A DNA stretch of 64,000 nucleotides from a virus. The first letter of the stretch is position 1, and each line of letters opens with the position of its first letter. Location of the stretch: positions 7,975-71,974 of IMG/VR virus record IMGVR_UViG_3300045806_000017, one strand, 5' to 3'. Both the position numbers and the translations under genes were made by a program. This document shows, piece by piece, positions 7,597 to 57,160 of the stretch. The notes beneath the pieces are model-generated. The model saw only the letters and a list, made by a program, of their open reading frames with translations. It was not told the DNA's origin and ran no database searches.

Positions 7597-8852
7597 TGCA
7601 AGTTCTCCATAGCTTGTTTATTTCTTTTATAGAAGTCTGAATTTCTATCTACTTTACCATATTCATTTAAAGAAGACATTCTGTCTTTCTTTTGTTGAGC
7701 TAACATTGCTTGAAATGCAGGATCTGAATTATATGAACCACCTACATTAGTAGCTTGGTTTGAATACAAAGGAGAGCTTCCAGGAGTGTCATATTGCTGT
7801 ACTCCAGTAACTCCTGTAGATTTACCTACTGAAGATGTATCAGGCTTAAATTGAGCTATAGCATCCAATGTAGGAGACAATACTTGTTTCATATCAGGTA
7901 CAGTTTGTGGATTATAAACACCATTCTGTACAGAAGGTATACCATTAGAAGCTTCAGAACCTGGATTATATTTTCCATTTGATATTGATGGTGGCTGTAT
8001 TGGACTCATATTTTGAGTAGTAGGAGATGTTGAGATATATCCTGTAGAATTAGGGTCTTCATTATAGGTTGGTAAATGTGCTTTAGATATATCATACGGT
8101 TTACCCGACATAAGAGACAAAATATCACTTCTACTTCCTTCAGGATGCTCTCTTTCAGCTACTGCTTGTGTAGCTCCTTGAGGTGTTAAAGAACCTCTGT
8201 AAGCTCTATCTGCCATGCTTGCTGCACTATATATATTTGCACCGTTACCTATAAGTTTTGCTGCTGGAGATTGTAAAGCTTCACCTAAAATACCTGCTTT
8301 ATTACCAATGAATTTACCTACTCTATTATCTGCTATTCCTGTACCAAATGATTGTGGTGTTGTTGGTGTAACATCTTTAATATCGGGTAACTTACTTATT
8401 TGAAATTCATTCCATCCTTTTTGTACTTGTGCAGGATCAACCGTATTAGAGGATACTCCATTAATCGAAGGAGATTCCCAATTAACTAAACCTGGTTTTG
8501 GTTGAGTATATGATACTTTTTCAGGTATAGATAATCCTGCTTCTCTTGAATCTAAATCATAAAGAGGTCTATCAACAGAACTATACTTACTTAATGCAGA
8601 TTCTATCTCAGGAGAATATCCTTTAAACTCAGGATGAGTTACAGGAAATCTTTCTCTGGTAATACCCATATCAGCATTATAAGATTCAGGCTGTATATAT
8701 GGAGTAGTTGATTTTGTTACAGGTAAATCTTTAGGTAATTTACTTTTAGTTTTACCATACCTTTGAATTCTATCTTTTCCATAGTTATCTAAGAATTCCT
8801 TTTCTGTTGGAGGAAAACTGCTAACACTTGCTGTGAATGGTTGTATAGCCAT
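7593..8852 (-). CDS. Putative internal virion/ejection protein
   Basis: Low-complexity Pro/Ser/Thr-rich ORF between the gp53-like gene and vRNAP; RBS present. Confidence 0.45.
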   Translation of the reverse strand: MAIQPFTASVSSFPPTEKEFLDNYGKDRIQRYGKTKSKLPKDLPVTKSTTPYIQPESYNADMGITRERFPVTHPEFKGYSPEIESALSKYSSVDRPLYDLDSREAGLSIPEKVSYTQPKPGLVNWESPSINGVSSNTVDPAQVQKGWNEFQISKLPDIKDVTPTTPQSFGTGIADNRVGKFIGNKAGILGEALQSPAAKLIGNGANIYSAASMADRAYRGSLTPQGATQAVAEREHPEGSRSDILSLMSGKPYDISKAHLPTYNEDPNSTGYISTSPTTQNMSPIQPPSISNGKYNPGSEASNGIPSVQNGVYNPQTVPDMKQVLSPTLDAIAQFKPDTSSVGKSTGVTGVQQYDTPGSSPLYSNQATNVGGSYNSDPAFQAMLAQQKKDRMSSLNEYGKVDRNSDFYKRNKQAMENLQ

Positions 8853-23926: not shown

Positions 23927-25927
23927 TTAAACAATATATGAGCTAATGTAGTTGGTTTCATCAGGTATGTCAAGTTCCCATATATGATTATCTTGGTTTT
24001 GTTTTATAGGTACTTCACTAGAAGGTTTCCAAGGAGACATTAATGCTAATTGACTTATAGAATCACAGTTATGTACAACAATATCTCCGTTTACACAGTA
24101 AGTATGTAGTGGTGTAGAAAAATTGTACACTCGTTCACTATCACTTTTATGTGTGATACTTTTAATTGGTCTGTATTCAATTTTCTGTTCTGCACTATGT
24201 TTGCATACTAACAAATCCTCTAAAGTTAAATCACCTGCATTTACCCAACCACGTTTAGTTAGGACAGGATGATTGTATGTTAGATGAATTGAATTATTAA
24301 CACTATCAGTTATAGTTAATGTAGCATTACTTCCTGTACACATATAATCTTTTATTTCTACCCAAGAGAATACACCTGTTTGTTCATCAAAAGCTTCAAC
24401 AACAGACTCTTCAATTAATTGATCTATTCTTCGTGTACGAATATATCCATTAAAAAGTTTCTCTTTAATCAATGTATCACCAGAAAAACAGAAATCATCG
24501 TGTTTACTTTTAAAACCACCTTTTGACACTAAACGTAATTCATCCATACATTCGACCATACATGGATCTAGTTTTAGTTCTTCTGGAAAGAACATTTTAT
24601 GTGTCTCAAACCAAGGTGATACTAATCTAAACCTATCAAACTTAGCTCCAGATGATTTAATACCTGGCTCAGCGGAATTAGATGCAAAATTAAACCAAAT
24701 GTTTCTGTTCATCATCTCTGTTTGAAGCCATGATATGAAAGCATATTGTTGTCCGTTAGTTTCTATACCAACTTCTTGAGGTTTATATATTTGTGCTAAT
24801 CTGAAAATATCATTAATTGTTATATTCATGGTTTGCTTCTTACATACACCATCTACCCAGAACCAATCCCCATTAGCATTGTATGCCCATACAGATATTA
24901 CACTAAAGTCATTAGCTTCTTTTTCTTTAGTAGCTAAGTCTGTTGAGATATAAAAATTAAAGATACCTTTATTAGATAATACAGATTCTCTTTTATACCA
25001 TCTAATATTAGTATCTGGAACTAATCTATCTTCATCACTCATAATTCTTAACATTAACTCTTGATTAAAGGCATCAATCTTACCTGCTAATAAAGCTTTA
25101 GTATATTTTTCCTTAACATACTTATAGGTAAATCTATCTTCCCATGCACCTTTAAATTCTTCTTCTGTGCAGGGAAATTGTTCACATACAGGAAATACAT
25201 TTACCTTCCATGCACCTGATTCTATAGCTTTGTATAAAGGATCTCTTGAATTAAAAGGTGTACCATTCCATATAACTTTTCTTCGTGTTGGATGTAGTGC
25301 ATAGTCAATAGCTTTATATACTGTATCCTCAATGCTTGTAATGACCGTAACTGAACGAGCATCTTCATCGGATACTAAGTCATCAAGAATAGCTAAGTAA
25401 GGTCTTTGAGCTAATTCCTTTGATCCCCTTACTCCAGTTTTTGCCCCATATCCTTTGAATATAGTTACTGAACCCTCTATATTTTTAAACTCCCACCTAA
25501 CCTCTGTAAATCTTGAGTAAGGTACATATGTCTGTAAGAATTCGCTATTACCCCAACGATATTCAAGATTCTTTCTCATGTTCTTAACACCATTTTCAAT
25601 AGAGTCAGAAACATATAAGCCTAAAGGAATCTTACCAAAGTTTTCTATTTCACCATAAGTAGCAATATAGAGTATTAGATACTCAGCCATAACAGTTGTT
25701 TTAGCTGAACCTCTAAACAACATATTAAGTACATCCTGATCTGTACCTTGTATAGTATCAAGCATCTTAAGATGAATTACAGGAGTTTTATGTTCTTCAC
25801 CTTGAGAACCATTAACCAACTTAATAAAGTTAATAAAGTTTAATGCAAAAATAGACGGTAAATAAGAAGAATCTTCTTTATAAGATACATTATTTAAGTA
25901 ATCTTCTACTTTCTTAGTTGTAGTCAT
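23927..25927 (-). CDS. terL: Terminase large subunit (N4 gp68-like) containing an intein
   Basis: FRGSAKTT Walker A; RPYLAILDDL; GTPFN; KHDDF nuclease motif. Confidence 0.95.
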   Translation of the reverse strand: MTTTKKVEDYLNNVSYKEDSSYLPSIFALNFINFIKLVNGSQGEEHKTPVIHLKMLDTIQGTDQDVLNMLFRGSAKTTVMAEYLILYIATYGEIENFGKIPLGLYVSDSIENGVKNMRKNLEYRWGNSEFLQTYVPYSRFTEVRWEFKNIEGSVTIFKGYGAKTGVRGSKELAQRPYLAILDDLVSDEDARSVTVITSIEDTVYKAIDYALHPTRRKVIWNGTPFNSRDPLYKAIESGAWKVNVFPVCEQFPCTEEEFKGAWEDRFTYKYVKEKYTKALLAGKIDAFNQELMLRIMSDEDRLVPDTNIRWYKRESVLSNKGIFNFYISTDLATKEKEANDFSVISVWAYNANGDWFWVDGVCKKQTMNITINDIFRLAQIYKPQEVGIETNGQQYAFISWLQTEMMNRNIWFNFASNSAEPGIKSSGAKFDRFRLVSPWFETHKMFFPEELKLDPCMVECMDELRLVSKGGFKSKHDDFCFSGDTLIKEKLFNGYIRTRRIDQLIEESVVEAFDEQTGVFSWVEIKDYMCTGSNATLTITDSVNNSIHLTYNHPVLTKRGWVNAGDLTLEDLLVCKHSAEQKIEYRPIKSITHKSDSERVYNFSTPLHTYCVNGDIVVHNCDSISQLALMSPWKPSSEVPIKQNQDNHIWELDIPDETNYISSYIV
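24068..24490 (-). mobile_element. Mini-intein (141 aa, no endonuclease) in TerL
   Basis: Begins CFSGDT, has block-B TYNHP, ends VYNFS...IVVHN followed by Cys+1. Removing it restores KHDDF-CDSISQL. Confidence 0.93.
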
Positions 25928-33993: not shown

Positions 33994-34371
33994 ATGTGTC
34001 TCACCATGTGTCATGAACATGGTGTTAATCCTATTAGGAGTATTACAATGAGTGCGTTTACTAAAGAAGTATTGGTTGCTGTGTCTCAATCTATTGCATT
34101 ATTACCTCAAGTAACTACAGCAGCAGGATTGGTTATCAGTAAAGCATCATCAGCAACTGTCAATGGCTTTAGTGCTATTGATGCACTATGTGCTTACGGT
34201 GCAGACTATGCAGATGACATACGACAAGATCAGTTAGCTCTGTTAGAGTTGAAACAATCTTATCGTGAAATCGTTAAAGCTGATGCTAAAACTGCTGTTG
34301 TATCTGGTGATAAAGCTTCAATCATTGCTGCATATAAAGCTATGCAGACTGACTTCGAGTCTATCGACTAA
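33994..34371 (+). CDS. First early protein (start probably 34048)
   Basis: AGGAG RBS before the ATG at 34048; followed by a terminator. Confidence 0.7.
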   Translation: MCLTMCHEHGVNPIRSITMSAFTKEVLVAVSQSIALLPQVTTAAGLVISKASSATVNGFSAIDALCAYGADYADDIRQDQLALLELKQSYREIVKADAKTAVVSGDKASIIAAYKAMQTDFESID

Positions 34372-34378
34372 GCTTATT

Positions 34379-34411
34379 GACTCATACTTCGGTATGAGTC
34401 TTTAGTTTTTT
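34379..34411 (+). terminator. Intrinsic terminator
   Basis: GACTCATAC-TTCG-GTATGAGTC followed by a T-rich tail. Confidence 0.85.
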
Positions 34412-34413
34412 AC

Positions 34414-34435
34414 TTTAAAGCATTTAATGTAATAG
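34414..34435 (+). promoter_or_regulatory. Repeated early motif TTTAAA(A)GCATTTWATGT (copy; others at 35338, 36260, 36821, degenerate at 33964)
   Basis: Near-identical copies upstream of early ORFs. Confidence 0.6.
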
Positions 34436-34470
34436 ACAATAATGTCTATCTTTTGCAAAAGGTGATTATC

Positions 34471-34599
34471 ATGACTTACAAAGTAAATACCGATGGAACA
34501 ATCGAAGTCATCAACTATGATGAAGAACCAAACTCATTAGAATTAGATAATGAGTTTCTTAATACTTGGAATGAGGAGAACTCAGATGAAATGTTATAA
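34471..34599 (+). CDS. Small acidic early protein (42 aa)
   Basis: AGGTG RBS; MTYKVNTDGTIEVINYDEEPNSLELDNEFLNTWNEENSDEML. Confidence 0.6.
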   Translation: MTYKVNTDGTIEVINYDEEPNSLELDNEFLNTWNEENSDEML

Positions 34600-34762
34600 C
34601 TGTGATTGTGTAAAGTCTGTTCTTGGTTTCTCACAAACTAGAAACGTCTGTCTCATCCAAGATCCTGAGGATCTCTGGTGTGATGAATGTTTAGAGGAAA
34701 ATCAACAACAGTTCGTCAATCAGCAGGATGCTGACTTTGATGAATGGTGTCAAACAATATAA
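34586..34762 (+). CDS. Small acidic Cys-rich early protein
   Basis: GAGGAG RBS before ATG 34586; CYNC...CDEC. Confidence 0.6.
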   Translation: MKCYNCDCVKSVLGFSQTRNVCLIQDPEDLWCDECLEENQQQFVNQQDADFDEWCQTI

Positions 34763-34767
34763 CAAAT

Positions 34768-34797
34768 AGCTACTCTTCGGAGTAGCTTATGTTCTTT
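34768..34797 (+). terminator. Intrinsic terminator
   Basis: AGCTACTC-TTCG-GAGTAGCT after the stop. Confidence 0.75.
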
Positions 34798-35290
34798 AGT
34801 TAAAGCTACACCAACATCAACACCAGTAAGATAGTCTAGTTATAGACACTAAGAATAGATAGTCTAATCATTTATAGCTCATATCTATTCATTTAAACCA
34901 AGAATCATAATCATCTTGGTGGTATCTAACTTAATGTCGAAAAGTGAACCTTGTGTTTAACTGTCTGAGACAGTTCATAAGGTACATGGTATGTATTTTA
35001 TGTGTTGAGGATAGTTGAACCAAGGTGAACTTGAGACACAGTGGAAAGTCTTAGTCACATATAATGGAGTGGTATGGGAACATTGGTTAATGTGAACCAT
35101 ATCATATTTTGATAGATAAAATCAATAGGTAGTAATATTTATTTTTACTTAATACTACATGTAGTAGGTAAGATATAGGATATGTCTATATATAATTTAA
35201 ATTGGAATAAATTAGTATTAATATCGATTCGATACTATTCCTAAACAATTACTAAACACTAGAGTAATGTTATAACATAACACTAACAAT

Positions 35291-35306
35291 GTGGACTATC
35301 GTCCAC
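35291..35306. promoter_or_regulatory. GTGG..CCAC hairpin family, copy 1
   Basis: GTGGAC-TATC-GTCCAC. Confidence 0.55.
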
Positions 35307-35397
35307 TCTACTACTACTCAATACTTCTATACAAGTATTTAAAAGCATTTTATGTAATAGAAATTATACACTTCGTATAATACTTTGGAGAACTATA

Positions 35398-35712
35398 ATG
35401 TCACAAATTAAATTAGGTCAATATGTTACCTATAAACAAAATATATATCTTGTTGTTGATATTCGTTATGAGAAATTGCTTATAATGAACAAAGACAACA
35501 AAGTACAAGTCAATAGAACTTCTATTGAAGTAACTAATCTACGTCCTGCAAAGGAAATAGATGGTTATCTTGTAACAGGTAAAGGAATGATTATATCTCT
35601 CACTTCTCATAAAGAAATGAAATGGGATAATAATCACGGTATTAGAAAAGCTCTATTAGCTAAGTATGCTAATAGTAATTCTGATACCTTTAAAGCATTG
35701 ATGACTGGTTAA
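35398..35712 (+). CDS. Early hypothetical protein
   Basis: GGAG RBS; YLVTGKGMIISL.S.K.MKW pattern. Confidence 0.7.
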   Translation: MSQIKLGQYVTYKQNIYLVVDIRYEKLLIMNKDNKVQVNRTSIEVTNLRPAKEIDGYLVTGKGMIISLTSHKEMKWDNNHGIRKALLAKYANSNSDTFKALMTG

Positions 35713-35752
35713 ACATTTACTACTACTACTTCGGTAGTAGTAGTAAATGTTT
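35711..35752 (+). terminator. Perfect 19-bp hairpin with TTCG loop
   Basis: AAACATTTACTACTACTAC-TTCG-GTAGTAGTAGTAAATGTTT. Confidence 0.7.
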
Positions 35753-35895
35753 CACTCAAAGATAGTCCCTTTATTCCACTTGTGTCAATCACCTCATAGC
35801 TCAAGCAAAAGAACTTGAAGCTTCAATGTATTAATTAGCGAAAGAGAACGTAGTCGTTAAGACGGAGTTCTCTGTAGCGTTAAATAGGAGTATTT

Positions 35896-38210: not shown

Positions 38211-39128
38211 TTGAGTATGTTAGATAGATTAGAGCAAATTACTAATGAAGAAATGTATTCTAAAAAGAATATCAGAAGACTTGTCAGGGAAGACATTGAA
38301 CGTAATCTTGATGGTAAGATTACTGTGTGTAAACAATTACTTGCAGACTTCTTGAGTAAAGAATATCTCTATTCAAGAGGTGCAAGGATAACTCATTTAT
38401 GTGATCATTTGTATAATGGTTACATATCAGGTGATGAGATAGTCATGGATGTATTAATAACTTGTCTTGGTTCAGAATCTCAAACAATTCAAGCTATATG
38501 TGGTGCTATATATCCATCCTTGAAATATGAAGAAGACATTGATGGTGTCAAGATGGTAGCTGATATATTGTTTGTTCTGTGTGAATCAGATTTGTATGAC
38601 ATCTATCACAATGCACAGAAAGAACTCTGTATTAGAAGTGTATACAAGCTTGAACCAATAACACTACAAGCTATTAATAGAGCTAAATTCTTGCCTCCTA
38701 TGTTATGTAAACCAGACAAAGTTAGATATAACGATGACTGCGGTTTCATTACATTCAAAGAACATTGTGTTCTGAAAAGACACAATCATCATAATAACTC
38801 AATATCTCTTGATGTATTAAACATCCAAAATGCTATTGAGTTATCTTTAGATCCATTCGTATTAGAGTGGGATAAAGAATTCAAGATGAAAGATGAATAT
38901 AAAGCTAAAACTGTATTTCAGTTAAAAGAAATACAGGATCAGTTTGAATTAGCTAAAGCTGAAACGTATTCTTTATATAGTGAATTACCAAACAAGTTCT
39001 ATCTACTTCATCGTTATGATAGTAGAGGTAGATTATATTGTTCTGGGTATTCCATATCATATCAAAGTAGTGAGTATGACAAAGCAGTGCTTAACATTGC
39101 TAAGAAAGAATTTGTTGAGGTGGACTAA
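38211..39128 (+). CDS. RNA polymerase II subunit 1 (N4 gp15-like)
   Basis: FLPPMLCKP, LDVLNIQN and FYLLHRYDSRGRLYCSGY (DxRGR motif). Confidence 0.9.
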   Translation: MSMLDRLEQITNEEMYSKKNIRRLVREDIERNLDGKITVCKQLLADFLSKEYLYSRGARITHLCDHLYNGYISGDEIVMDVLITCLGSESQTIQAICGAIYPSLKYEEDIDGVKMVADILFVLCESDLYDIYHNAQKELCIRSVYKLEPITLQAINRAKFLPPMLCKPDKVRYNDDCGFITFKEHCVLKRHNHHNNSISLDVLNIQNAIELSLDPFVLEWDKEFKMKDEYKAKTVFQLKEIQDQFELAKAETYSLYSELPNKFYLLHRYDSRGRLYCSGYSISYQSSEYDKAVLNIAKKEFVEVD

Positions 39129-39301: not shown

Positions 39302-39688
39302 GTGAATACTATGTGCGAACAACTTTCAACATTAAGCCAAGAACAAATGGTTATAATATACCTCCTTGGATTCAAAACAGGTTCACAAGTATTAGGTGAA
39401 GCTACAGAAGATAGTGATCATGATTATGTAATGCTTCAAAGTGATTATGATACTAACTTCAACTTTCCTTATTCTAAGTATGGAGATGTGTTTGGTACAT
39501 CAAGTGTTAAACAATGGTTTAACGGTGATTGTATTAATATACTCATTGCTGAAACACAGACACATTTTAATGCGTGGGTATATGCTACAGAAACATACCA
39601 AACACTTATTTCTAAACCAGTAAACAAAGAACTCAGAGTTAAACTGTTCTCAGCTTTAAGAGAGGTATATTTACTATGCAATTCGTAA
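39302..39688 (+). CDS. Pol-beta-superfamily nucleotidyltransferase-like protein
   Basis: TGSQVLG...DSDHDY (GS...DxD motif). Confidence 0.65.
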   Translation: MNTMCEQLSTLSQEQMVIIYLLGFKTGSQVLGEATEDSDHDYVMLQSDYDTNFNFPYSKYGDVFGTSSVKQWFNGDCINILIAETQTHFNAWVYATETYQTLISKPVNKELRVKLFSALREVYLLCNS

Positions 39689-40680
39689 AACCAATAGACT
39701 ATTTGCGTACAGACATTGCCAGTCAATTTGGCTTAGATAAATTGACTTGGTATGAGAGAATAGAGTTTGTACATGACAACGAGAATGTATTAGAAGATGG
39801 TATTGGTTTAGCTAAAAAACCTCTTCTTTATATTAAAGCTGTAAATGCTTACAGAGAAGTACAAGCAGGTAAACCAACTAACTTTATAATGGGTTTAGAT
39901 GCTAGTTCATCGTGTGTACAAATCATGGGATTATTAATAGGATGTGAAAAATCTTTGATTCAAACTAATATGATTGATACTGGTAAAGTTCAGGATGTAT
40001 ATTCAAACACTACAAAGGAAATGAATGTACATCTTAATAATGAAATACAGGTAGAAAGGGATAGAGTTAAATTAGCGTTGATGACTTCGCTATATGGCTC
40101 TAAAATGAATCCAATAATGCTCTTTGGTGAGAGCACACCTGAATTAACTCAATTCTATGCAGCTAGAGAAACACTTATTCCTGGTTGTATGGAAGTCATG
40201 GAGGACTTGTTGAGTGCTTGGAATCCGCATACTATAAGCTATCAGTGGACATTACCCGATCAGCATGTAGCAAGAGTAATGGTTACAGGTCCAGAAAATA
40301 CATCTCTTAGAATTAGAGATATTCATGGTACTAAATCTAGTTTTACTTACGAGTATAAGAAGATAAATGTAACATCGGCTTACTCAACTCCTATATGTGC
40401 TAATGTCATTCAAAGTTTGGATGCTTACTTATGTAGAGAGTTAATTAGAAGATGTTATAAATCTGGATTCAACATCCTTACAGTTCATGATTGCTTTTTC
40501 TGTAATCCAAACCATGTACATCAAATGAGGCAACATTACTTAGACATTTGTATTGAGTTATATAAGTCTAATTACTTATCTAACATCATCTCAGAACTTC
40601 TAGGTAGAAAAGTAATTTATAGACAATATGACACGACATTAGAAGGTAAAATGAGAGACGCTGAATACTTTATTTCATAG
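39676..40680 (+). CDS. RNA polymerase II subunit 2 (N4 gp16-like)
   Basis: DIASQFGLDK; GLDASSSCVQ (motif A); RDRVKLALMTSLYGS (motif B); ANVIQSLD; TVHDCF (motif C). Confidence 0.93.
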   Translation: MQFVKPIDYLRTDIASQFGLDKLTWYERIEFVHDNENVLEDGIGLAKKPLLYIKAVNAYREVQAGKPTNFIMGLDASSSCVQIMGLLIGCEKSLIQTNMIDTGKVQDVYSNTTKEMNVHLNNEIQVERDRVKLALMTSLYGSKMNPIMLFGESTPELTQFYAARETLIPGCMEVMEDLLSAWNPHTISYQWTLPDQHVARVMVTGPENTSLRIRDIHGTKSSFTYEYKKINVTSAYSTPICANVIQSLDAYLCRELIRRCYKSGFNILTVHDCFFCNPNHVHQMRQHYLDICIELYKSNYLSNIISELLGRKVIYRQYDTTLEGKMRDAEYFIS

Positions 40681-42434: not shown

Positions 42435-42601
42435 AACAAAAGACCTGTAATGCTTGTATATTCTTTAAAACATTAGGTACATCCTACACAAGAAAATGTT
42501 ACCTGTTTGTAAATAATAACTCTTCATGTAGTACAGCATGTAGAGAATTTAAACCAGAAATTAAAAGAGAAAAGCATTTATGTACAAATACCACTCAATA
42601 G
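42431..42601 (+). CDS. Small Cys-rich protein (56 aa)
   Basis: Manually translated MKQKTCNACIFF...CYLF...ACREF; coupled ATGA overlap. Confidence 0.55.
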   Translation: MKQKTCNACIFFKTLGTSYTRKCYLFVNNNSSCSTACREFKPEIKREKHLCTNTTQ

Positions 42602-43509
42602 AACAATTTAGAAACTGTATTAAAGAAATACAAAGATTATGGAAAGACAAACCATTACCTATATTAACCTTTAATGGTAGTGTAAAACTGCATGGAATTA
42701 ATGCTGGTGTAGAGTTACCAGCTAATATTCCTCAATCAAGAAACCAAGTATTAACAGAAGATAATGACTTTTATGGTTTTTATACATTCCATAAAGAAAG
42801 AAAAGAAATATTCCAACAGATATATGATTCTCTTGGTTTAGATTTACCAGTTGTAATTTATGGTGAATGGGCAGGTAAAGGGATACAACAAGGTGTAGCT
42901 ATATCTAAATTAGATAGAGCTTTTTATATATTTGGTATTAAAGTAATTACAGGAGAAGATACTCATTATTGGCTTAAAGAAATTCCTTGGTTTGGTTTAG
43001 CTAACTATAATATTATTGTACTTAGCAAGTTCTATAAAATTGATATTGATTTTAACTATCCTGAATTATCTCAAAATAAACTACAAGAACTCACTCTTCA
43101 AGTAGAACAAGAGTGTCCTATTGCTATGTTATTTGGAGTATCTGGTATTGGTGAAGGTATTGTATGGGAACATATTGATGATGAAGGTCAAATGTTATCC
43201 TTTAAAGTTAAAGGGAAGAAACATTCATCCAGTAAAGTAAAAGTATTAGCTGCTGTAGGTATTGAAAAAGTAAATTCAATTAAAGAATTTGTTAATATTG
43301 TACTTACAGATGCTAGATTAAAACAAGCTTATTTTGAATGTAATGAACCAACAGATATGCAAGGTATAGGCATATTCCTTAAATGGATTAATGCAGATAT
43401 TCTTAAAGAAGAGTCTGATACTTTAGAAGCATCAAAATTAACAATTAAAGATGTTGGTTCAGCTATTTCAAAACAAGCTAAACAATGGTATATAGAGAAA
43501 ATAAAATGA
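42580..43509 (+). CDS. RNA ligase (Rnl2-like)
   Basis: KLHGIN (motif I), YGEW, EGIVW and FKVK nucleotidyltransferase motifs. Confidence 0.85.
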   Translation: MYKYHSIEQFRNCIKEIQRLWKDKPLPILTFNGSVKLHGINAGVELPANIPQSRNQVLTEDNDFYGFYTFHKERKEIFQQIYDSLGLDLPVVIYGEWAGKGIQQGVAISKLDRAFYIFGIKVITGEDTHYWLKEIPWFGLANYNIIVLSKFYKIDIDFNYPELSQNKLQELTLQVEQECPIAMLFGVSGIGEGIVWEHIDDEGQMLSFKVKGKKHSSSKVKVLAAVGIEKVNSIKEFVNIVLTDARLKQAYFECNEPTDMQGIGIFLKWINADILKEESDTLEASKLTIKDVGSAISKQAKQWYIEKIK

Positions 43510-47817: not shown

Positions 47818-48014
47818 TAAAATGCTTTAAAACAATACATTACAATTTATTTCTTAAATGTATTTAAAAGACCTAGTAAGTCTTAAAACTACGCATTATA
47901 CATTTCTACAGCTTCATAAACTGTATCACTTATAAAGAGAATTATTTTGACTAAAGGTGAAATATTTGATTCATACTTAAAAGATGAGAATCCTCTATTA
48001 ATTAAGGAAAAACT

Positions 48015-49542: not shown

Positions 49543-49705
49543 CCAAATACACATAGCTAAAAGTGTAAAAGAGTTACAAAGTAATTTAGGAGGAAGATGC
49601 TCTAAAATGTATCAAGATAGTAAAGATGGTACTATATATCATATTGGTTATGTAATTGGTAGTTTATGGTGTATTGAATATGTTGAGAAGAGAATAAAAC
49701 AATGA
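49496..49705 (+). CDS. Hypothetical protein
   Basis: SKMYQD.KDG...HIGYVIG pattern. Confidence 0.55.
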   Translation: MVQEYLKMRTFIDQYNQIHIAKSVKELQSNLGGRCSKMYQDSKDGTIYHIGYVIGSLWCIEYVEKRIKQ

Positions 49706-51267
49706 AACACCTATTACATTATGATTCAACTGAGAATCTCCATATAGCCTTGTTAATGAAAGAAACTTGTCTTTCATTGCCTGAAGTCCAAAAGCATTAT
49801 TTAGAACCTTTAGAGGCTCTAGGATTGGATGTTTCAACTACTATCTCATTCTCACTCAAATATGATAAACCTACAGCTTCTCAAGCCAAGCTGTATCTGA
49901 GTAATTTATTACCTGCACTACAATCATTGAAGATAGATACCGTATTAGTAGCTGACGGCACTTATTTTAAGTACCTAACAGGGGTATCTAAAGTTGATCC
50001 TCACTTAGGATATGTGCTTTCATGTAAAGTAAAGGGATATGAACACATAAACTGTATTCTATCTCTTAATTACAAGGTGTTATTTTATGACCCAAGTAAA
50101 CAGAGCAGAATTGACCTATCACTAACTACTGTAGCTAATCATGTACTTGGTAAGCATAAAGAAATAGGTAGTGATATTATTCACTCAGAGGATTATCCTG
50201 ACACGATAGAAGAAATAGCCTTATGGTTAAATAGGTTACATCAGTATAATGCCTTAACAGTGGATATTGAAGCATTCTCGTTACAGTTTAATGAAGCAGG
50301 TATAGGTACAATTGCATTTGCTTGGGATGAACATAATGGTATTGCTTTTTGTTGCGATGAAAAGCAACAAGAAAATTACATATTTTCAAATACTAAAGTA
50401 AAAAAATTACTTAGAGAATTCTTTGAATCGTTTAAAGGAAAGCTCATATATCACAATGTAGGTTATGACACCAAGGTTCTACTATATGAATTATTCATGA
50501 ATAATTTATTAGACCAGAAAGGATTACTTCATGGTTTAGATGTAATGACTAAGAATATTGATGATACGAAACTCATTACATACTTAGCTACTAATTCATG
50601 TGCTGGTAATACATTAGGTCTTAAACCAAATACACATGAGTATAGTGGAAATTATAGTGTTGATGTAACAGATATTCGTTTAGTACCAAAACAAGACTTA
50701 CTCCGCTATAACTTAGTTGATGCACTTTCAACTTGGTATCTCTACAAAAAGAACTATCCAATAATGGTAGCTGATAATCAACTTGATATTTATAACACTA
50801 TCTTTATTCCTTCTGTAAAAGTAATTCTTCAGATGGAGCTTACAGGTATGTGTTTAGACATGAACCAAGTTCTTAAAGCAGAACAAGAGTTGATAGCTAT
50901 TAAAGATATTCAGTTAGCTCAGATACAAGATAATCCTTTAATTAAGAAGTTGGAGGAAACACTTACTAATCAAGCTTGGTTCAAGGATTTTGAAGATAGA
51001 AAAGCTAAAGCTAAGAAACCTGAGAATATCAAACCAAGAGAAATACCTAAACCAGTTACATTCAATCCAGGTAGCCCTAAACAGTTAATTGAGTTGGTTT
51101 ACAATCAATTAGGTTTTGAGATTACTGATAGAACAAATACTGGTTTAGGTGCAACAGGTGGGAAAGTATTACTTAAAAAATACAATCAATTGTTATCACA
51201 ATTCAATTTAACAGAAGATTCATTTAAATTAGATGAGTCATTACAACAAATATTTGAAGAAGATTAA
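49702..51267 (+). CDS. DNA polymerase (family A), N-terminal part: UDG-like domain, 3'-5' exonuclease and start of thumb
   Basis: VDIEAFSL (Exo I), YHNVGYD (Exo II), YNLVD (Exo III), MELTG and FNPGSPKQL. Confidence 0.9.
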   Translation: MKHLLHYDSTENLHIALLMKETCLSLPEVQKHYLEPLEALGLDVSTTISFSLKYDKPTASQAKLYLSNLLPALQSLKIDTVLVADGTYFKYLTGVSKVDPHLGYVLSCKVKGYEHINCILSLNYKVLFYDPSKQSRIDLSLTTVANHVLGKHKEIGSDIIHSEDYPDTIEEIALWLNRLHQYNALTVDIEAFSLQFNEAGIGTIAFAWDEHNGIAFCCDEKQQENYIFSNTKVKKLLREFFESFKGKLIYHNVGYDTKVLLYELFMNNLLDQKGLLHGLDVMTKNIDDTKLITYLATNSCAGNTLGLKPNTHEYSGNYSVDVTDIRLVPKQDLLRYNLVDALSTWYLYKKNYPIMVADNQLDIYNTIFIPSVKVILQMELTGMCLDMNQVLKAEQELIAIKDIQLAQIQDNPLIKKLEETLTNQAWFKDFEDRKAKAKKPENIKPREIPKPVTFNPGSPKQLIELVYNQLGFEITDRTNTGLGATGGKVLLKKYNQLLSQFNLTEDSFKLDESLQQIFEED

Positions 51268-51490
51268 TATGAAACATATTTACTTTGAAGCAAGAAAAGA
51301 AGAAGAGGAATTTGTTCTTAAAGCAGCTAAATATTTTAAAGAGAATCTCCAACATAATACCTTCACAGAGGCTGATATTGTACCAGGTTGTTGGTTTGCT
51401 ATGAGATGGGGATTAAATAGAAATGGTGTACTTGTCTTTAAGTTAGATGAATTCTCTGAACCAACTAATTATATGGAAATTATTAAATGA
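51233..51490 (+). CDS. Hypothetical protein inside the split polymerase locus
   Basis: ORF coupled to its neighbours; no HNH or GIY-YIG motif. Confidence 0.6.
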   Translation: MSHYNKYLKKINMKHIYFEARKEEEEFVLKAAKYFKENLQHNTFTEADIVPGCWFAMRWGLNRNGVLVFKLDEFSEPTNYMEIIK

Positions 51491-51648
51491 AACAGATTGG
51501 GTATATTGCACTCTACAAAGATATTCGTCTTGAAATACCATTAGAAGATGCTAAAGATATATATGCTGCAAAACTCATAGCAATTAAATATTGTAATATT
51601 CCAAAATCAAAACAAGATCTTTTAAGTATAGAGCCAAGATATGAATAA
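51487..51648 (+). CDS. Small hypothetical protein (53 aa) inside the split polymerase locus
   Basis: MKQIGYIALYKDIRLEIP...IEPRYE; overlaps the upstream stop and the downstream ATG. Confidence 0.6.
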   Translation: MKQIGYIALYKDIRLEIPLEDAKDIYAAKLIAIKYCNIPKSKQDLLSIEPRYE

Positions 51649-52741
51649 ACAAGAAGCAATAGAAATTGCTAAACTACTGAAAGCTTTAATTGAGTTATCA
51701 GCAGTCGATAAGATTCTAGGAACTTTCATTAAAGCATTTAAAGAGAAGTCTATCTTAAAAGATGATGGTTACTACTACCTACATAGTTCGATTAACTTGG
51801 GAGCATGTGTTAGTGGAAGAATGTCTTCTCCACTGCTTATGACTATACCTAGTCACTCTAAATACGCAAAAGTAATAAAGAAATGTTTTGTTGCTCCAAA
51901 AGGATACTTAATGTGTTCAGCAGACTTCAATAGCTTAGAGAGTGTTGTAAATGCTCTTATAACAAAAGATCCTAACAAGTTAAGACCACTGATAGAGGGT
52001 ATTGATAGTCACTGTTTTAATAGCTTTTATTATTATCCAAATAAGTTAAAAGATATTGAAAATACTAAAGATTCATTAAATTCTATCAAAGGTAAGTATG
52101 CTGACATCAGACAAGATAGTAAACCAATATCCTTTGCACTTCAGTACGCTGGTACATGGAGTACCTTAGTAAATAACTGTGGTATTCCTGTATTTGATGC
52201 TAAACAAATAGAAGCTAACTATCATAAGCTTTATATAGTTTCTGATAATTGGACTGAAGAAAAACTAAACCAAGCATCTAAAGATGGGTATATAACCGTA
52301 GCATTTGGTTTAAGGGTAAGAACACCTATTCTTAAACAAACTATATTAGGTACTAAGAACACACCAAATGAAGCTAAACAAGAGGGAAGAACAGTAGGTA
52401 ATGCTATGGGAGGACAATCATATTCAATGCTTAATAACCGTGCTGTAATTGACTTACAACAACGTATTTTAAACTCCAAATATAAATATGATATTAAGCC
52501 TATAGCAACAATACACGATGCTTTATACTTTCTTGTAAAGAACACTGTTGGATGTATAGAGTGGTTTAACAACAATCTGATAGAGTGTATGCGATGGGAT
52601 AATTTACCTGAACTACAACATGACATAGTTAAGTTAGGTGCAGAGTTATCTATTCATTATCCAAATTGGTCTTATGAAATAGGAATTCCTAATAATTCCA
52701 ATAAACAACAAATTTTAAACATCTGTAAGGAACATAAATGA
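51641..52741 (+). CDS. DNA polymerase (family A), C-terminal polymerase domain
   Basis: SGRMSS; ADFNSLE (motif A); RQDSKPISFALQYAG (motif B); IHDA (motif C). Confidence 0.92.
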   Translation: MNKQEAIEIAKLLKALIELSAVDKILGTFIKAFKEKSILKDDGYYYLHSSINLGACVSGRMSSPLLMTIPSHSKYAKVIKKCFVAPKGYLMCSADFNSLESVVNALITKDPNKLRPLIEGIDSHCFNSFYYYPNKLKDIENTKDSLNSIKGKYADIRQDSKPISFALQYAGTWSTLVNNCGIPVFDAKQIEANYHKLYIVSDNWTEEKLNQASKDGYITVAFGLRVRTPILKQTILGTKNTPNEAKQEGRTVGNAMGGQSYSMLNNRAVIDLQQRILNSKYKYDIKPIATIHDALYFLVKNTVGCIEWFNNNLIECMRWDNLPELQHDIVKLGAELSIHYPNWSYEIGIPNNSNKQQILNICKEHK

Positions 52742-52998
52742 AGAAATATAAGTATACTTTCTGGAATGGAATGGTTGAAGTTCCTAACGGTGAGTATGTA
52801 AAAGAAAAAGAAGCTTGTATATATTTACAGCACTGGATAAATAATCAATCTAAACTAGAAAAGATTATCGAATCTCAACAACTAGATTGGTATGAGTTAC
52901 ATACAAAATACGGTGATGAAAGAATACTTTCTTTATTACTTACTGCTGGAATACTGTTCTCAGTATTCTTTAACATTTTTCAATTTTTAATAAAATAA
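52738..52998 (+). CDS. Hypothetical membrane-anchored protein
   Basis: C-terminal hydrophobic helix. Confidence 0.55.
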   Translation: MKKYKYTFWNGMVEVPNGEYVKEKEACIYLQHWINNQSKLEKIIESQQLDWYELHTKYGDERILSLLLTAGILFSVFFNIFQFLIK

Positions 52999-52999
52999 T

Positions 53000-53215
53000 A
53001 TGGAACATAATATAAAAGGATTTACCAATGAAATACAAGAACAAAAGAGCATATTAATAGACATAGGATTAATAATAGAATTTGGTTTAAGAGATTATAA
53101 AGAATATCTTAAATCATTATTCTATGAGCCAATGTCTCTTAAAACGAGTGCTTTCATTAGACACTTATATTATTTATCTGAAACACGATTAGAGGAGATA
53201 CTTCAAAAGCTATGA
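53000..53215 (+). CDS. Hypothetical protein
   Basis: Coupled ORF. Confidence 0.5.
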   Translation: MEHNIKGFTNEIQEQKSILIDIGLIIEFGLRDYKEYLKSLFYEPMSLKTSAFIRHLYYLSETRLEEILQKL

Positions 53216-53460
53216 ATAAATCAACACTACTACAAACTAGTGCAACTGCACACTTATTGATTACAAGAATTAATACTGTCCTTGAGTTAAGTAACAAAGA
53301 AGTTGCTGATAGAGAAAGACATAACGCAAATCCTAATAAGCATTTTACCTATGCTGCTAAACCTGATTTGATTGTATCTAACACAAAAGCTAACGGTGCT
53401 GTAAGAAGAATTTCAATGGAGTTAAGTAGACTATTGACAGATTTACGTCAAAACAGGTAA
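53212..53460 (+). CDS. Hypothetical protein
   Basis: C-terminal GAVRRISMELSRLLTDLR. Confidence 0.6.
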   Translation: MNKSTLLQTSATAHLLITRINTVLELSNKEVADRERHNANPNKHFTYAAKPDLIVSNTKANGAVRRISMELSRLLTDLRQNR

Positions 53461-53470
53461 TATTTTAATT

Positions 53471-53486
53471 GTGGTCTTACGACCAC
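53471..53486. promoter_or_regulatory. Hairpin family, copy 7
   Basis: GTGGTC-TTAC-GACCAC. Confidence 0.55.
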
Positions 53487-53543
53487 TAACACCCACAACA
53501 TAAAAGGATTTTGATATGTTTTTAACAATAATAATGTATATAC

Positions 53544-54192
53544 TTAGGAGGTTTTATGTAACACTTACGAGTGAGTGCAACGTTAGCACATTTAAATTAC
53601 TAAGGATTAAATCTATAACTATGTTCGTAAGAAGTTTCTTAAACCTCCTAAACCATTTCGAAGAAATAACAGTGTTTCGTTAGTATAGCTACGGATAACC
53701 TGACTTGTCCATAACAGCTCAGGGCGTAAGAATATCGAATTCCTATTTTACCTACGAATAGTAAAAAGGGATATTACTTAACTTTTAAAGAGACATCCAA
53801 TGGCTAATAAAAAGAAAGGTGGTGGTGGTAAACCACCCAAGTGTTAAACTAAAGTTCTTTATTCAAGAACATAATTCTCATAACTGAGGAGTGCATTTCC
53901 CCACTCAATAAAAGGGATACTAATTTTATATTTCGTGTTATTAGGTCTGATATACCTAACTATCAATAAACCAATTATCTGTTCCAAATTTATAAGTCTA
54001 CCCAAATGTAGGTAAGAGAACGATTATTCCACTTATAAACCAAACTATGTGATGCGCACATGGTATTTACCGAAGAGGTCAAATCCTCACACTAAACCTA
54101 TACAGTTATGCTGTATGGGTTCTTTTTTAAGTGCTTTAGAGCGTTAGTCCTCTAATGTAATATGTATAGCCATATATTTCTAAAGCACTTAA
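53544..54192 (+). ncRNA. Putative structured ncRNA tract with stem-closed units ending in CCA
   Basis: No substantial ORF; more than 10 manually paired stems; TAAACCA four times; terminator at 54095-54128. Confidence 0.55.
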
Positions 54193-54365
54193 CAAAGATG
54201 AATAATCCTATAAATCTATACAATGCACCATTACATTGGTTCAATGTAATAAAATTTAAACCATGTTCTTGTAATAAGAATCCTAATTGTAGTATCTGTC
54301 ATGGATACTTTCTCATAAGAGATAATAAAAATGAACCCACTCAACAATACACCCTTAAATACTAA
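54162..54365 (+). CDS. Small Cys-rich protein (start probably 54198)
   Basis: CSC...CSICHG. Confidence 0.5.
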   Translation: MYSHIFLKHLTKMNNPINLYNAPLHWFNVIKFKPCSCNKNPNCSICHGYFLIRDNKNEPTQQYTLKY

Positions 54366-54513
54366 AAAAGTATTTGTTATGGGTACAGACCATTCAGGAT
54401 GTGAAATATATCTTCCTGTCGATTCTTATGATGAATTAGTAATTCAAACCAAGAAACAAGAATTACAACAGTTCCTATTCAACCAACCTTTACCAAAAAA
54501 GGAGTTAGCATAG
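54331..54513 (+). CDS. Hypothetical protein
   Basis: ORF in operon. Confidence 0.5.
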   Translation: MNPLNNTPLNTKKVFVMGTDHSGCEIYLPVDSYDELVIQTKKQELQQFLFNQPLPKKELA

Positions 54514-54737
54514 TGTCATTTGAAAATATGGTTGACGCAGACCTAGGTTCTGCTTTTGAACAAAAACATTTAGAAACGAGATTAGCTAACAGAATCAAAT
54601 ATTCTGAATGGGATGGTAATCCAAGACAATGTTATTCATGTGGTAGAGGTATTGAAGAAGTAAGATTAAAACTGTTAAATGCTACTCAATGTAGTAGTTG
54701 TGTAAAACAAAAAGATGAGGATGAAGATGAAGTATAA
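54513..54737 (+). CDS. DksA/TraR-like C4 zinc-finger protein
   Basis: CYSCGRGIEEVRL.....QCSSC; AAGGAG RBS. Confidence 0.75.
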   Translation: MSFENMVDADLGSAFEQKHLETRLANRIKYSEWDGNPRQCYSCGRGIEEVRLKLLNATQCSSCVKQKDEDEDEV

Positions 54738-55167
54738 ACCAGGAGATATTGTTAGATTTTCTACAGAAGCAGAAAATCACGTCGGTATTAAAGGTACAGC
54801 TATTATTGATTCATATAAAGGAGCAGATAGATATTTCCTTAAAGAATTTCCTACAGCACATCATTCAGATTGGTTTACTTTAGTAATACCTAAAGAAGGT
54901 ATTAAACATGATTCAGGTAAACTAAGATATTCTTTACTTCCTTGGAATGCTTTAAAAGAAGTAGCTAAGGTACTTGAGTTTGGTACAGTTAAATACAGTG
55001 TTAATAATTGGCAGAAGATAGAACCACAAAGGTATGAAGATGCTGCTATGAGACACTTAGTAGCTATCCTAGAAGGTGAATGGATAGATGAAGAATCTAA
55101 CTTACCTCATGCAGCTCACTGTATATGTTGCTTACTATTCTTAATATGGTTTAAATTAAATGAATAG
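54715..55167 (+). CDS. dATP/dGTP diphosphohydrolase-domain protein (DUF5664-like)
   Basis: GIKHDSGKLRYSLLP...VLEFG..KY..NNW...AAMRHL...DEESNLPHAAH. Confidence 0.85.
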   Translation: MRMKMKYKPGDIVRFSTEAENHVGIKGTAIIDSYKGADRYFLKEFPTAHHSDWFTLVIPKEGIKHDSGKLRYSLLPWNALKEVAKVLEFGTVKYSVNNWQKIEPQRYEDAAMRHLVAILEGEWIDEESNLPHAAHCICCLLFLIWFKLNE

Positions 55168-55525
55168 AATATTTCTAACATTATTACTTTTACCTTTTCA
55201 TACACAAGCATTAACAAAATCTGAACAAGTGTGTGCTGCAAGAAATATTTATTTTGAAGCAAGAGAAGATAAAGCATCTTGGCTTAAGGTATTGCAAGTT
55301 GCTAATAATCGTACACAACATCCAAAGAAATATGGAGCTAAGTCATCTAACCTATGTGACATAGTACATAGCTCACAATATACGACAAGACGGTTTAAGC
55401 GTATTAAAGAGCTTAAGACATACAAAGAGATTACTTTGTTTATATTACGTCATAAACAGCCATTACGTTCAAATTTGACGTACTTTAGTGGACATCATAA
55501 GTTACATTTTCGGAGTCACTTTTGA
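55160..55525 (+). CDS. Cell-wall hydrolase (SleB/Hydrolase_2-like)
   Basis: Signal peptide; CAARNIYFEAR...VANNR...LCDIV...QY. Confidence 0.75.
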   Translation: MNRIFLTLLLLPFHTQALTKSEQVCAARNIYFEAREDKASWLKVLQVANNRTQHPKKYGAKSSNLCDIVHSSQYTTRRFKRIKELKTYKEITLFILRHKQPLRSNLTYFSGHHKLHFRSHF

Positions 55526-55713
55526 AACTATACGAAATACCAAAAGAATCTATTATTTACATAGAATGTAGTGATGGTAGTTCATACCTTACATTTAAAC
55601 ATCTTGATGGTGCATATTCCTACTGTATAACAGAACATGGAAATGTAAATCATCTAAGTGTAAATACAGAATTAGAACCAATATCACAAACAGAGTTTAT
55701 TCTTAAGGAATAG
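55522..55713 (+). CDS. Hypothetical protein
   Basis: FKHLDGAYSYC pattern. Confidence 0.55.
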   Translation: MKLYEIPKESIIYIECSDGSSYLTFKHLDGAYSYCITEHGNVNHLSVNTELEPISQTEFILKE

Positions 55714-55714
55714 T

Positions 55715-56290
55715 ATGACAAATATGCAAGTAATAAAACTTGAAGAGCATGGTTATCAATCAGCACTTAAAGGATTAGCTTTAAGCTATTTCCGTGAAGG
55801 ACAAGATTTTAATGAATGGTTTACATGGGATAAGCTAAAAAAAGCTGAGAAGCAGTTACAGAACTTAGCTTTTAAAGGTGGAGGACATAACAAAGCTTTA
55901 GCAAGTATTTTTACTTGGTGGTTAGTTACAGCACCTAGAGGATGGTGGGTTGAGTATGATACTTACAAAGTAGCTACAACAGCTAATAGTGCAAGCACAA
56001 TGCACACTCTTTCTAAAGAGTTAGTAACCAAAGAGCATTTTGCTTCTGGTACATCACAAACAATTATTGATAATCTTAATGAGTTAATTACTTCTGGTGC
56101 AGATGTAACAACTCTTAAAATGAATCTACCTGAAAGTTATTTACAAACAAGAGAAATTTGTATTAATTACATGACCCTTCAGAACATCATTAAACAACGT
56201 ACAGGACATAGATTAAAGATGTGGGATACGTTTATTAATAGAATTTTAGCTCAAGTAGAACATCCAAATTTATTAAGACAGGAAATATAA
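55715..56290 (+). CDS. ThyX-like (thymidylate synthase-complementing fold) protein
   Basis: GHNKAL...APRGWWVEYDTYKV...NSASTMH...LPESYLQTR...NYMTL..I..QR..HRL; lacks the canonical RHR motif. Confidence 0.6.
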   Translation: MTNMQVIKLEEHGYQSALKGLALSYFREGQDFNEWFTWDKLKKAEKQLQNLAFKGGGHNKALASIFTWWLVTAPRGWWVEYDTYKVATTANSASTMHTLSKELVTKEHFASGTSQTIIDNLNELITSGADVTTLKMNLPESYLQTREICINYMTLQNIIKQRTGHRLKMWDTFINRILAQVEHPNLLRQEI

Positions 56291-56291
56291 A

Positions 56292-56489
56292 ATGATTCTA
56301 AGTGAATTGAGTATTGGTGATACATTCACCATTGATATAGGTAACTATATGAAAATTGACTCTAATACAGATAACTTTAAGATTACGGATTTAGATGAGT
56401 ATTTTGATATGAGTAACTATTTGTTTGTTCTAAACCTAGATACTTCAACTTTAGGTGTCTTATTAAACACGCAAGAGGTAACAATATGA
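56292..56489 (+). CDS. Hypothetical protein
   Basis: ORF in operon. Confidence 0.5.
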   Translation: MILSELSIGDTFTIDIGNYMKIDSNTDNFKITDLDEYFDMSNYLFVLNLDTSTLGVLLNTQEVTI

Positions 56490-56875
56490 CAGATATGATT
56501 ATAGACCAATCCAGCTTTATGTACTTAGGTAATCAGAGTACAACTACAATGAACCAAGAACAAATGACTTTGTATAAGGGTCTTATTGAAGAAGAAGTAG
56601 AAGAATTATGTGAAGCTTTGTTTTATAAAAGAAACGAAGAAATCGTCAAAGAAGCTTGTGATGTAATTGTAGTTACACTTGGTTTACTTTTAAGCATGGG
56701 TATTAATGTTCATAAGGCTTGGCGTTTAGTACATAAAAACAACATTAGTAAGGTATCAAACCAAGATGCTATTGTTAAAGATGAGAATGGTAAGATTATG
56801 AAATCAGAAGAATCTAATGCAAGAAAAGCTAAGATGATGTCTGAAATATCTGCTTTACTACAAAAGGATTATTAA
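56486..56875 (+). CDS. MazG-like NTP pyrophosphohydrolase
   Basis: LIEEEVEEL...KEACD...VHKNNISK...GKIMK. Confidence 0.85.
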   Translation: MTDMIIDQSSFMYLGNQSTTTMNQEQMTLYKGLIEEEVEELCEALFYKRNEEIVKEACDVIVVTLGLLLSMGINVHKAWRLVHKNNISKVSNQDAIVKDENGKIMKSEESNARKAKMMSEISALLQKDY

Positions 56876-57160
56876 ATGTATATCACAGTTAGTGAGTCAA
56901 AGTTTCATGATACTTTTAATACTGTAAGACCTGATAACTTTAGTTATGAAGGTAGAAAAGCATTGTTTGAATACTTGGAAGGATTAGAAGAAGATACTAA
57001 TCCCATAGAATTAGATGTAATAGCTTTGTGTTGTGATTACTCAGAAGACTCAAATGAGAATCATCTGTCTAATTATGGTTTAGATTCTATAGAAGAATTA
57101 GCAGAACACACTACTGTAATTATAGTAGATGATGAAACATCAATCATTCAGGACTTTTAA
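56876..57160 (+). CDS. Acidic hypothetical phage protein
   Basis: FSYEG..ALFEYLE...ELDVIALCCDYSE. Confidence 0.65.
   Translation: MYITVSESKFHDTFNTVRPDNFSYEGRKALFEYLEGLEEDTNPIELDVIALCCDYSEDSNENHLSNYGLDSIEELAEHTTVIIVDDETSIIQDF

Follow-up and report, generated by a model that had tools for sequence, protein, structure and literature searches.

A transcribed gap in the tRNA slot of an uncultured N4-like phage: a possible cis-acting non-coding RNA cassette

The stable RNAs C and D of phage T4 are non-tRNA RNAs that are co-transcribed with the T4 tRNA cluster. The large non-coding RNAs (ncRNAs) GOLLD and ROOL often lie near tRNA genes and in prophages (extracts of PMC5737381), and in the N4-like phage LUZ7 the middle promoters take the form of GC-rich hairpins, whose stem has at least 6 bp and whose loop has 3-4 nt, ~15 bp upstream of the transcription start site (extracts of PMC9163698). 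The element described here is a gap between genes at positions 53461-54197 of a 64,000-nt stretch of DNA (the window), which corresponds to bases 7975-71974 of the 71,974-base virus record IMGVR_UViG_3300045806_000017, a record estimated to be 97 % complete. An earlier reading of the sequence, referred to as the original prediction, had taken this gap for a candidate array of CCA-ended units (A to C and a fourth, here Unit D) processed into tRNA-like mimics or decoys. The gap is free of open reading frames (ORFs), is bounded, and is transcribed as a long species that is able to exceed its neighbours. The reading that an N4-like phage has a non-coding RNA cassette here, placed in the slot where relatives keep tRNA genes and acting mainly in cis, is given a probability of about one half.

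According to this reading, the GC-rich hairpin at the left end of the gap would serve as the promoter of an untranslated RNA of ~0.53-0.65 kb, possibly assisted by a sigma-70-like site, and the RNA would run towards an intrinsic terminator and then a long hairpin that abuts the next start codon (Table 1). The product would be one long RNA with a 5' hairpin, a well-folded Unit A and a discrete end at 54003/4, and could accumulate several-fold over the neighbouring mRNAs. The unit would begin a new transcript, halt most of it at the terminator, and gate both read-through into and translation of the downstream nucleotide-metabolism genes, the stable RNA being the terminated, processed leader. We infer the start at the hairpin promoter and the mainly cis action on downstream transcription and translation.

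The gap 53461-54197 is non-coding, and it is closed by a terminator; the codon scores and the terminator at its end bear out the original prediction on both points. Codon log-odds were trained on the 38 long genes of the phage, for which 50-codon chunks of true genes (n = 254) had a mean of 0.50, a standard deviation of 0.18 and a 5th percentile of 0.19. All 11 ORFs of at least 20 codons in 53461-54330 scored 0.16 or less, while real small genes nearby scored +0.25 to +0.68. The ORF starting at 54198 also scored near 0, yet it is real, being kept in frame in the related viral contig L042 (82.5 % nucleotide identity over window positions 54190-54503), and the non-coding stretch is for this reason taken to end at 54197. 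No credible ORF was found in the gap under translation table 11, under table 4, or with TAG or TAA read as glutamine; alternative genetic codes were rejected, as the 193-aa frame obtained with TAA as glutamine would require 19 recoded stops. An orphan ribosome-binding device, consisting of AGGAGG and an ATG-TAA start-stop with an anti-Shine-Dalgarno partner in Unit A, was likewise rejected; AGGAGG occurs in 15 copies in the window, none of which (0/15) lies ahead of an ORF longer than 12 codons.

It is most improbable that the RNA is instead the highly expressed mRNA of one or more hidden small protein genes, the candidates being a 55-aa ORF at 53516-53683 and a 15-aa ORF at 53801. The former has AAGGA ~7 nt ahead of its ATG and encodes a hydrophobic N-terminus, but its codon score is -0.24, far from the range of the real small neighbours, and it has no match in Pfam or PHROG. 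By our own estimate, chance alone would supply about one ORF of this length in such an A+T-rich stretch, and tblastx against 36 related loci (see below) gave no match inside the gap, the sole match (E 0.15) lying in the downstream small gene.

Five public sequencing runs contain the stretch, three of them metatranscriptomes, all chosen for containing it. The three RNA runs (X2, X4 and X5) and one DNA run (X3) were placed on positions 51000-57000 as contigs, each with a single depth; contigs cannot show strand, true ends or levels. All three RNA runs placed contain parts of the gap, which is transcribed as a long species and in one run above its neighbours. The depth of the ORF-free gap was in clear excess in X2, in mild excess in X4 and without excess in X5 (Table 1), contig depth being a poor measure of level. 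After position 54004 the X2 contig passes directly into Illumina adapter sequence, and because the adapter begins with A the last templated base is either 54003 or 54004. The RNA contigs are unbroken at 53655, 53835 and 53973, and their only discrete end is 54003/4, which falls inside the inner hairpin loop of Unit B; none of the contigs ends at a proposed CCA site. The placed contigs are identical to the window apart from a single G>A, present in one of them. Genes past the terminator are 6-9.5 deep in X2, compared with 2.1-2.6 just ahead of the gap, as a promoter followed by a leaky terminator would give. Positions 54005-54094 are without contig cover in X2, and the uncovered part alone is no evidence.

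Transcription from the + strand is indicated by the orientation of the hairpin and terminator, the co-orientation of the neighbouring genes and the type of adapter found at 54004, the last argument holding solely for a library of the usual dUTP type. Transcription of the - strand was rejected, no good promoter being seen by eye ahead of 54004 on that strand. A terminator-like site (53838-53817) and a promoter-like site (53711-53682) were observed on the - strand.

The hairpin that opens the gap belongs to a family of five with the form T-GYGGnn-(3-4 nt loop)-nnCCRC-T, found at 35291, 40791, 41852, 47803 and 53471, all on the + strand and intergenic. Four of them lie 92-198 nt ahead of the next gene and the fifth, at 53471, is the one in question. 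The members are GC-rich and recurring, with stems of at least 6 bp and loops of 3-4 nt, in agreement with the LUZ7 type, and by this analogy the five hairpins probably serve this uncultured N4-like phage as its middle (phage RNAPII) promoters. The copy at 53471-53486 is accordingly worded here as a candidate middle-type phage promoter or a candidate 5' stabiliser of the unit. The sigma-70-like match that overlaps the start of the gap is weak evidence, as the region contains six such sites against a shuffle mean of 14.7.

At the other end, the stem-loop 54095-54121 is followed by a U-run, and the gap region contains three terminator-like sites compared with 0.8 in shuffles. The 78-nt hairpin that comes next shares the U-run of the terminator and extends to the next start codon. 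It is one of the four inverted repeats listed highest for the + arm and resembles a processing-type hairpin or one that occludes the start site. Apart from its last 9 nt it is absent from L042.

Table 1 Features of the gap, its surroundings and the window (window positions; z, folding energy relative to 200 shuffles, with the number of shuffles as good)
Feature	Position	Strand	Remarks
Upstream border gene, 82 aa	53212-53460	+	codon-usage score +0.37, similar to real small neighbours
Sigma-70-like promoter match (TTGACA, 18 nt, TAATAT)	53434-53463	+	10/12 consensus positions
GC-rich hairpin GTGGTC-TTAC-GACCAC	53471-53486	+	one of five in the hairpin family
RNA contig extent	53473-54004	+ (inferred)	at least 532 nt continuous, metatranscriptome run X2
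Unit A	53544-53655	+	11-bp closing helix TTAGGAGGTTT/AAACCTCCTAA, then ACCA; interior a 7-8 bp helix and small hairpins; z -3.33, 0/200
Multibranch domain	53656-53746		z -0.36, 69/200
Tested piece	53836-53924		z -2.43, 3/200
Unit B	53989-54042	+	9-bp A/U-rich closing stem, then CCA; z -0.88, 37/200
Tested piece	54043-54094		z -2.54, 2/200
Intrinsic terminator closing the unit	54095-54128	+	12-pair stem, 3-nt loop, CTTTTTT tail
Long hairpin	54121-54198	+	20-nt arms (95 % complementary), 38-nt loop; z -7.50, 0/200
First downstream gene, small Cys-rich protein (CxC...CxxC)	54198-54365	+	kept in L042
X2 (RNA) gap contig	53473-54004		depth 51.1; 3.3-9.5 in the 7 other listed contigs, on flanking genes
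X4 (RNA) gap contig	53432-53723		depth 8; 2-5 on flanks
X5 (RNA) gap contig	53783-54001		depth 3; 3.4 and 7.8 for comparison, no excess
X3 (DNA) gap contig	53811-54104		depth 2.7; crosses 54004
Giant ORF, >2,200 aa	2-6667	-	runs off the window end
N4-like RNA polymerase subunits (two)	38211-39125, 39676-40677
RNA ligase gene	42580-43506		Pfam/PHROG searches
Split family-A DNA polymerase	49702-52741		ORFs of 521 aa and 366 aa

Several points weigh against the cis-acting cassette. The strong depth excess occurs in one of the three RNA runs (~2-fold in X4, none in X5), and the RNA data are the contig-only, pre-selected runs described above, without strand, ends or levels. The X2 and X4 contigs include the hairpin itself, and a start of the LUZ7 type would lie ~15 nt downstream of it. 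The abundant RNA stops ~100 nt short of the terminator, and nothing resembling a terminator is present at 54004. Structure in the transcribed core is only mild (z ~-2), there is no evidence of selection on the RNA because no homologues were found, and, for an element that acts purely in cis, a leader exceeding 600 nt is long.

Searches with the C-terminal part of the polymerase (PolA-C) gave relatives at 9 viral-contig loci and 27 metagenome loci. The closest is L002, with 70 % amino-acid identity, none of the 27 metagenome loci being closer, and it is the sole viral relative with clear synteny, the polymerase C-part being followed there by a counterpart of the 71-aa ORF, then by a gap, and then by counterparts of the DksA-like and dNTP-pyrophosphohydrolase genes. 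The L002 gap contains a tRNA-like gene (7602-7691, 39.8 bits) and a tRNA-Met (7701-7777), followed by a terminator. L003 and L006 have tRNA-Met and tRNA-Arg(TCT) 870-1140 nt after the polymerase, with a near-identical terminator at the end. Three of the nine viral loci therefore carry tRNAs downstream of the polymerase and six do not, and by its position downstream of the polymerase the window gap is where these relatives keep their tRNA genes.

Sensitive blastn of the gap against the 36 relative loci gave best E values of 0.11-0.24 and no similarity to their tRNA islands. No homologue of the gap was found among 50,697 phage records by blastn or megablast, nor by scans with exact and gapped words; a gapped Unit A pattern gave three matches, which resemble unrelated coding sequence and were rejected. 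The 82-aa upstream neighbour, which is without a Pfam or PHROG match, found no relative when used as query. The DksA-like neighbour led to L042, a viral contig of 107,578 bases in which the right-hand gene module recurs with 75-86 % nucleotide identity; the similarity begins at 54190, which gives the unit a sharp right border, and leftwards from there the two diverge fully. Upstream of the shared gene, the L042 contig continues for 170 nt of unrelated sequence and then ends. Its positions 1-290 end in long poly-A/T runs, probably a contig-end assembly artefact. As no homologues were found, there is no covariation evidence for the gap RNA.

The lack of conservation anywhere searched is what would be expected of a functionless remnant, that is, a tRNA slot that lost or never gained its tRNAs and holds filler transcribed through a kept promoter and terminator, and we consider this explanation rather unlikely. 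It agrees with the shuffle-level folding of most sub-domains, with the different abundance of the RNA between runs, and with the relatives having a promoter-less or terminator-bounded tRNA island of ~460 nt in the same place. Simple decay is opposed by the absence of residual similarity to tRNAs or to the relatives' islands, and the remnant in general by the size of the gap (~740 nt), which exceeds those islands, by Unit A and the 78-nt hairpin, which fold far better than chance, and by the compactness of phage genomes.

ARAGORN found no tRNA or tmRNA genes in the window, and none in 53400-54400 at default settings or with -ps or -ps90; together with the Rfam searches this agrees with the expectation of the original prediction that no canonical tRNA is present. 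With ARAGORN -i and -ps80, two intron-containing tRNAs were called with introns of 413 and 545 nt, one of them overlapping the upstream ORF, and both were judged spurious. A tmRNA was found neither with ARAGORN -m, also at -ps80, nor by a match in Rfam. The whole 71,974-base record is without a tRNA, its best tRNA-model score being 15.3 bits against a cut-off of 29. This 15.3-bit match lies at window positions 47941-48003 (+; E ~0.1), ~125 nt after the hairpin at 47803, goes unlisted when cmscan is run there with every Rfam family at E values up to 1, and is either a chance match or a badly decayed tRNA.

Rfam 15 (4227 models, including GOLLD and ROOL) gave no matches at gathering thresholds in the 64 kb. 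At E values up to 10, positions 53300-54400 gave no tRNA match and nothing relevant; the seven matches obtained are to unrelated families and all far under the cut-offs, and the one to mir-1245 is merely the hairpin 54121-54198. A group I intron, ribozymes, a T-box, 6S RNA and RNase P were rejected, having no match at this level. The gap RNA thus appears, from its sequence, to be an orphan of a known kind that lies outside every curated RNA family. The word ATCTGTT, which we take to be a T7-type class II terminator word, is located at 53977, 20 nt from the RNA end; it occurs in 26 copies compared with 17.4 in shuffles and was set aside as uninformative.

These searches also bear on a tentative alternative that we regard as unlikely, a trans-acting large phage ncRNA of ~0.53 kb that would, for example, sponge up or scaffold some factor of the host or the phage, in the niche of GOLLD and ROOL. 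The size of at least 532 nt, the abundance in X2 and the tRNA-slot position fit such an RNA, as does the neighbourhood in which GOLLD and ROOL occur, and LUZ7 provides an N4-like example of a heavily transcribed, ORF-free intergenic cluster of small RNAs (sRNAs) (extracts of PMC9163698). It is opposed by the failure of all 4227 Rfam models to match even at E up to 10, by the weak overall fold signal (z ~-2), by the lack of homologues and so of covariation, and by the absence of similarity to the LUZ7 sRNA region, which is not syntenic. A search for antisense targets within the phage found no notable complementarity to the rest of the genome, the best exact match being 14 nt (E 0.13).

The motifs, inverted repeats and terminator quoted in the original prediction are all present at the positions it gave. 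When the folding energy of each element was compared with 200 shuffles (Table 1), Unit A, the terminator and the 54121-54198 hairpin were retained as exceeding chance, while Units B, C and D and the multibranch domain were not; Unit C (z -0.07, 90/200 shuffles as good) and Unit D (z +0.34, 121/200) fold at chance level, as do Unit B and the multibranch domain. Folded in full, the transcribed core 53471-54004 gives z -1.99 on the + strand and -1.84 on the - strand, and 53461-54200 has z -5.25 on + and -6.79 on -. The strong value for the whole gap seems to come mainly from 54043-54200, because the three pieces tested there fold well.

All four proposed CCA ends lie within the word TAAACCA, of which the window contains 87 copies (44 on + and 43 on -) compared with 15.6 in dinucleotide shuffles. 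It is found on both strands and in several reading frames (three genes checked by eye). TAAACCA is often part of TAAACCAAG, which occurs in 28 copies against 0.8 expected at zero order. ACCA is present in 673 copies against 380 expected at zero order, and AACCA also contributes to the excess; TAAACCA is therefore no discrete motif, its excess building stepwise from short words, and it is a common word of this genome. By a scan statistic for same-strand clustering, four copies in 400 nt have P = 0.18 and five in 615 nt have P = 0.05, so that the local cluster is borderline. A perfect closing stem of at least 9 bp that ends 0-1 nt before CCA is found at 6 of the 1364 CCA sites on both strands, and two of the six are in the gap, namely the 9-bp stem of Unit B and the 11-bp stem of Unit A, which is the best of the whole window. 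The layout of these two units, with 11 bp and ACCA and with 9 bp and CCA, is like a tRNA tail; the contigs do not end there, and TAAACCA is common. Before a stem-plus-CCA pattern in A+T-rich phage DNA is taken for tRNA mimicry, the frequency of the word itself has to be controlled for.

In the L002 slot, positions 7602-7694 form a gene shaped like a tRNA, in which the acceptor, D and T arms are normal and the ACCA end is encoded; its anticodon region has 27 nt instead of the 9 expected by the model and forms a rod of ~15 bp with a 3-nt loop. It scores 39.8 bits with the Rfam tRNA model, yet is not called by ARAGORN. With such a rod as its anticodon arm the RNA should be unable to decode, and the modelled shape suggests a tRNA mimic without decoding function or else a tRNA that carries an odd short insert.

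The gap RNA as an array of tRNA mimics, in which a polycistronic precursor is cut into mimics or decoys with acceptor stems and CCA tails, is very unlikely. The two stem-CCA sites, above all the 11-bp helix and ACCA of Unit A, the occupation of the slot by tRNAs in relatives, the non-decoding shape of the L002 gene and the RNA ligase encoded by the phage all speak for it, and, should A54004 be templated, the RNA could end in ...CCCA at 54003/4. Neither ARAGORN (default, -ps, -ps90) nor Rfam at E values up to 10 found a tRNA-like fold, Units B, C and D fold like shuffles, the TAAACCA cluster is borderline in a genome where the word is common, and the RNA contigs cross all of the proposed ends, with the only discrete end bisecting Unit B. 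Two of the outcomes that the original prediction had named as counting against it are approached here, as no CCA-ended transcript was found and there are no homologues in which covariation could be sought; contigs cannot exclude processing into small RNAs. The mimic or decoy reading has little direct support, and it is kept alive by the helix and ACCA of Unit A and by the non-decoding tRNA-shaped RNA in the same slot of L002.

A broader idea, which we hold to be distinctly unlikely, is that the tRNA slot of this lineage is a cradle for non-decoding RNAs that derive from tRNAs or mimic tRNA ends, with Unit A engaging acceptor-end enzymes or nucleases. If this were true, a phage without tRNAs but with an RNA ligase would be making an abundant 0.5-kb RNA whose best-folded module, an 11-bp minihelix followed by ACCA, could interact with enzymes or defence nucleases specific for the acceptor ends of tRNAs.

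By its gene content, the window is from an N4-like podovirus, with an SU10-type portal (Pfam/PHROG protein searches), RNA polymerase subunits, a giant ORF, a split family-A polymerase and, as the original prediction had noted, an RNA ligase. The best tblastn matches of the polymerase C-terminal part are N4-like phages with 50-54 % identity, and both phage records opened among the polymerase matches are classed as Schitoviridae. Genes are directed leftwards to ~33.7 kb and rightwards from ~34 kb, and the gap is situated in the rightward, replication-gene arm. A replication origin at the gap was rejected, as there are no iterons and merely two 2-copy direct repeats, and the GC-skew turn is elsewhere, at ~33 kb.

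Two small ORFs (85 aa and 53 aa) lie between the halves of the split polymerase, the C-part is interrupted again by ~0.8 kb in L003, L006 and L009, and L005 has a group I intron (1305-1600, 89.5 bits) a few kb upstream; this N4-like lineage seems rich in intervening elements. In the structural arm, a 666-aa protein (23930-25927, -) has intein/HINT matches at residues 500-620, with 28.5 and 25.9 bits, both under the Pfam cut-offs. The gaps of the early region (34370-35760, +) contain strong hairpins with CTTCGG/TTCG loops at 34379-34400, 34768-34787 and 35708-35755, the last with 22-nt arms; the first is probably a terminator, as a T-rich stretch comes next. An ORF-free stretch of 635 nt is also found in the early region, at 34763-35397.

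RNA-only units that run from promoter to terminator are rarely annotated in phages and almost none are understood. The unit reported here, in an uncultured N4-like phage from cold soil, is a concrete candidate for a phage regulatory or effector RNA, and its hairpin family would extend the middle-promoter pattern of LUZ7 to a distant uncultured N4-like lineage. The phage tRNA islands (RF00005; L002, L003 and L006) resemble it in strand, in their slot after the split family-A polymerase and in the intrinsic terminator at their end. They differ in having tRNAs with encoded CCA ends, whereas the gap has no cloverleaf or tRNA-model match, even below threshold, and shares no sequence with the islands. 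RNAs C and D of T4, also stable non-tRNA RNAs from a tRNA transcription unit, are small and co-processed with tRNAs, whereas the window phage is without any tRNA. GOLLD and ROOL share with the gap RNA a size above 500 nt, a phage context and a position beside or in place of tRNA genes (extracts of PMC5737381). In contrast to these ornate RNAs, the gap has no Rfam match, a weak global fold signal, and no family or covariation. The LUZ7 cluster of sRNA1-3 (orf69-orf70) follows SSB/gp46 genes, whereas the window gap follows the polymerase, and the two have no sequence similarity; the LUZ7 sRNAs are shorter than 250 nt (extracts of PMC9163698), compared with one contig of at least 532 nt here. LUZ7 is nevertheless like this locus in being an N4-like phage with a heavily transcribed, ORF-free intergenic stretch, and in having GC-rich hairpins of the same stem and loop size (at least 6 bp and 3-4 nt) ahead of its transcription units (extracts of PMC9163698).

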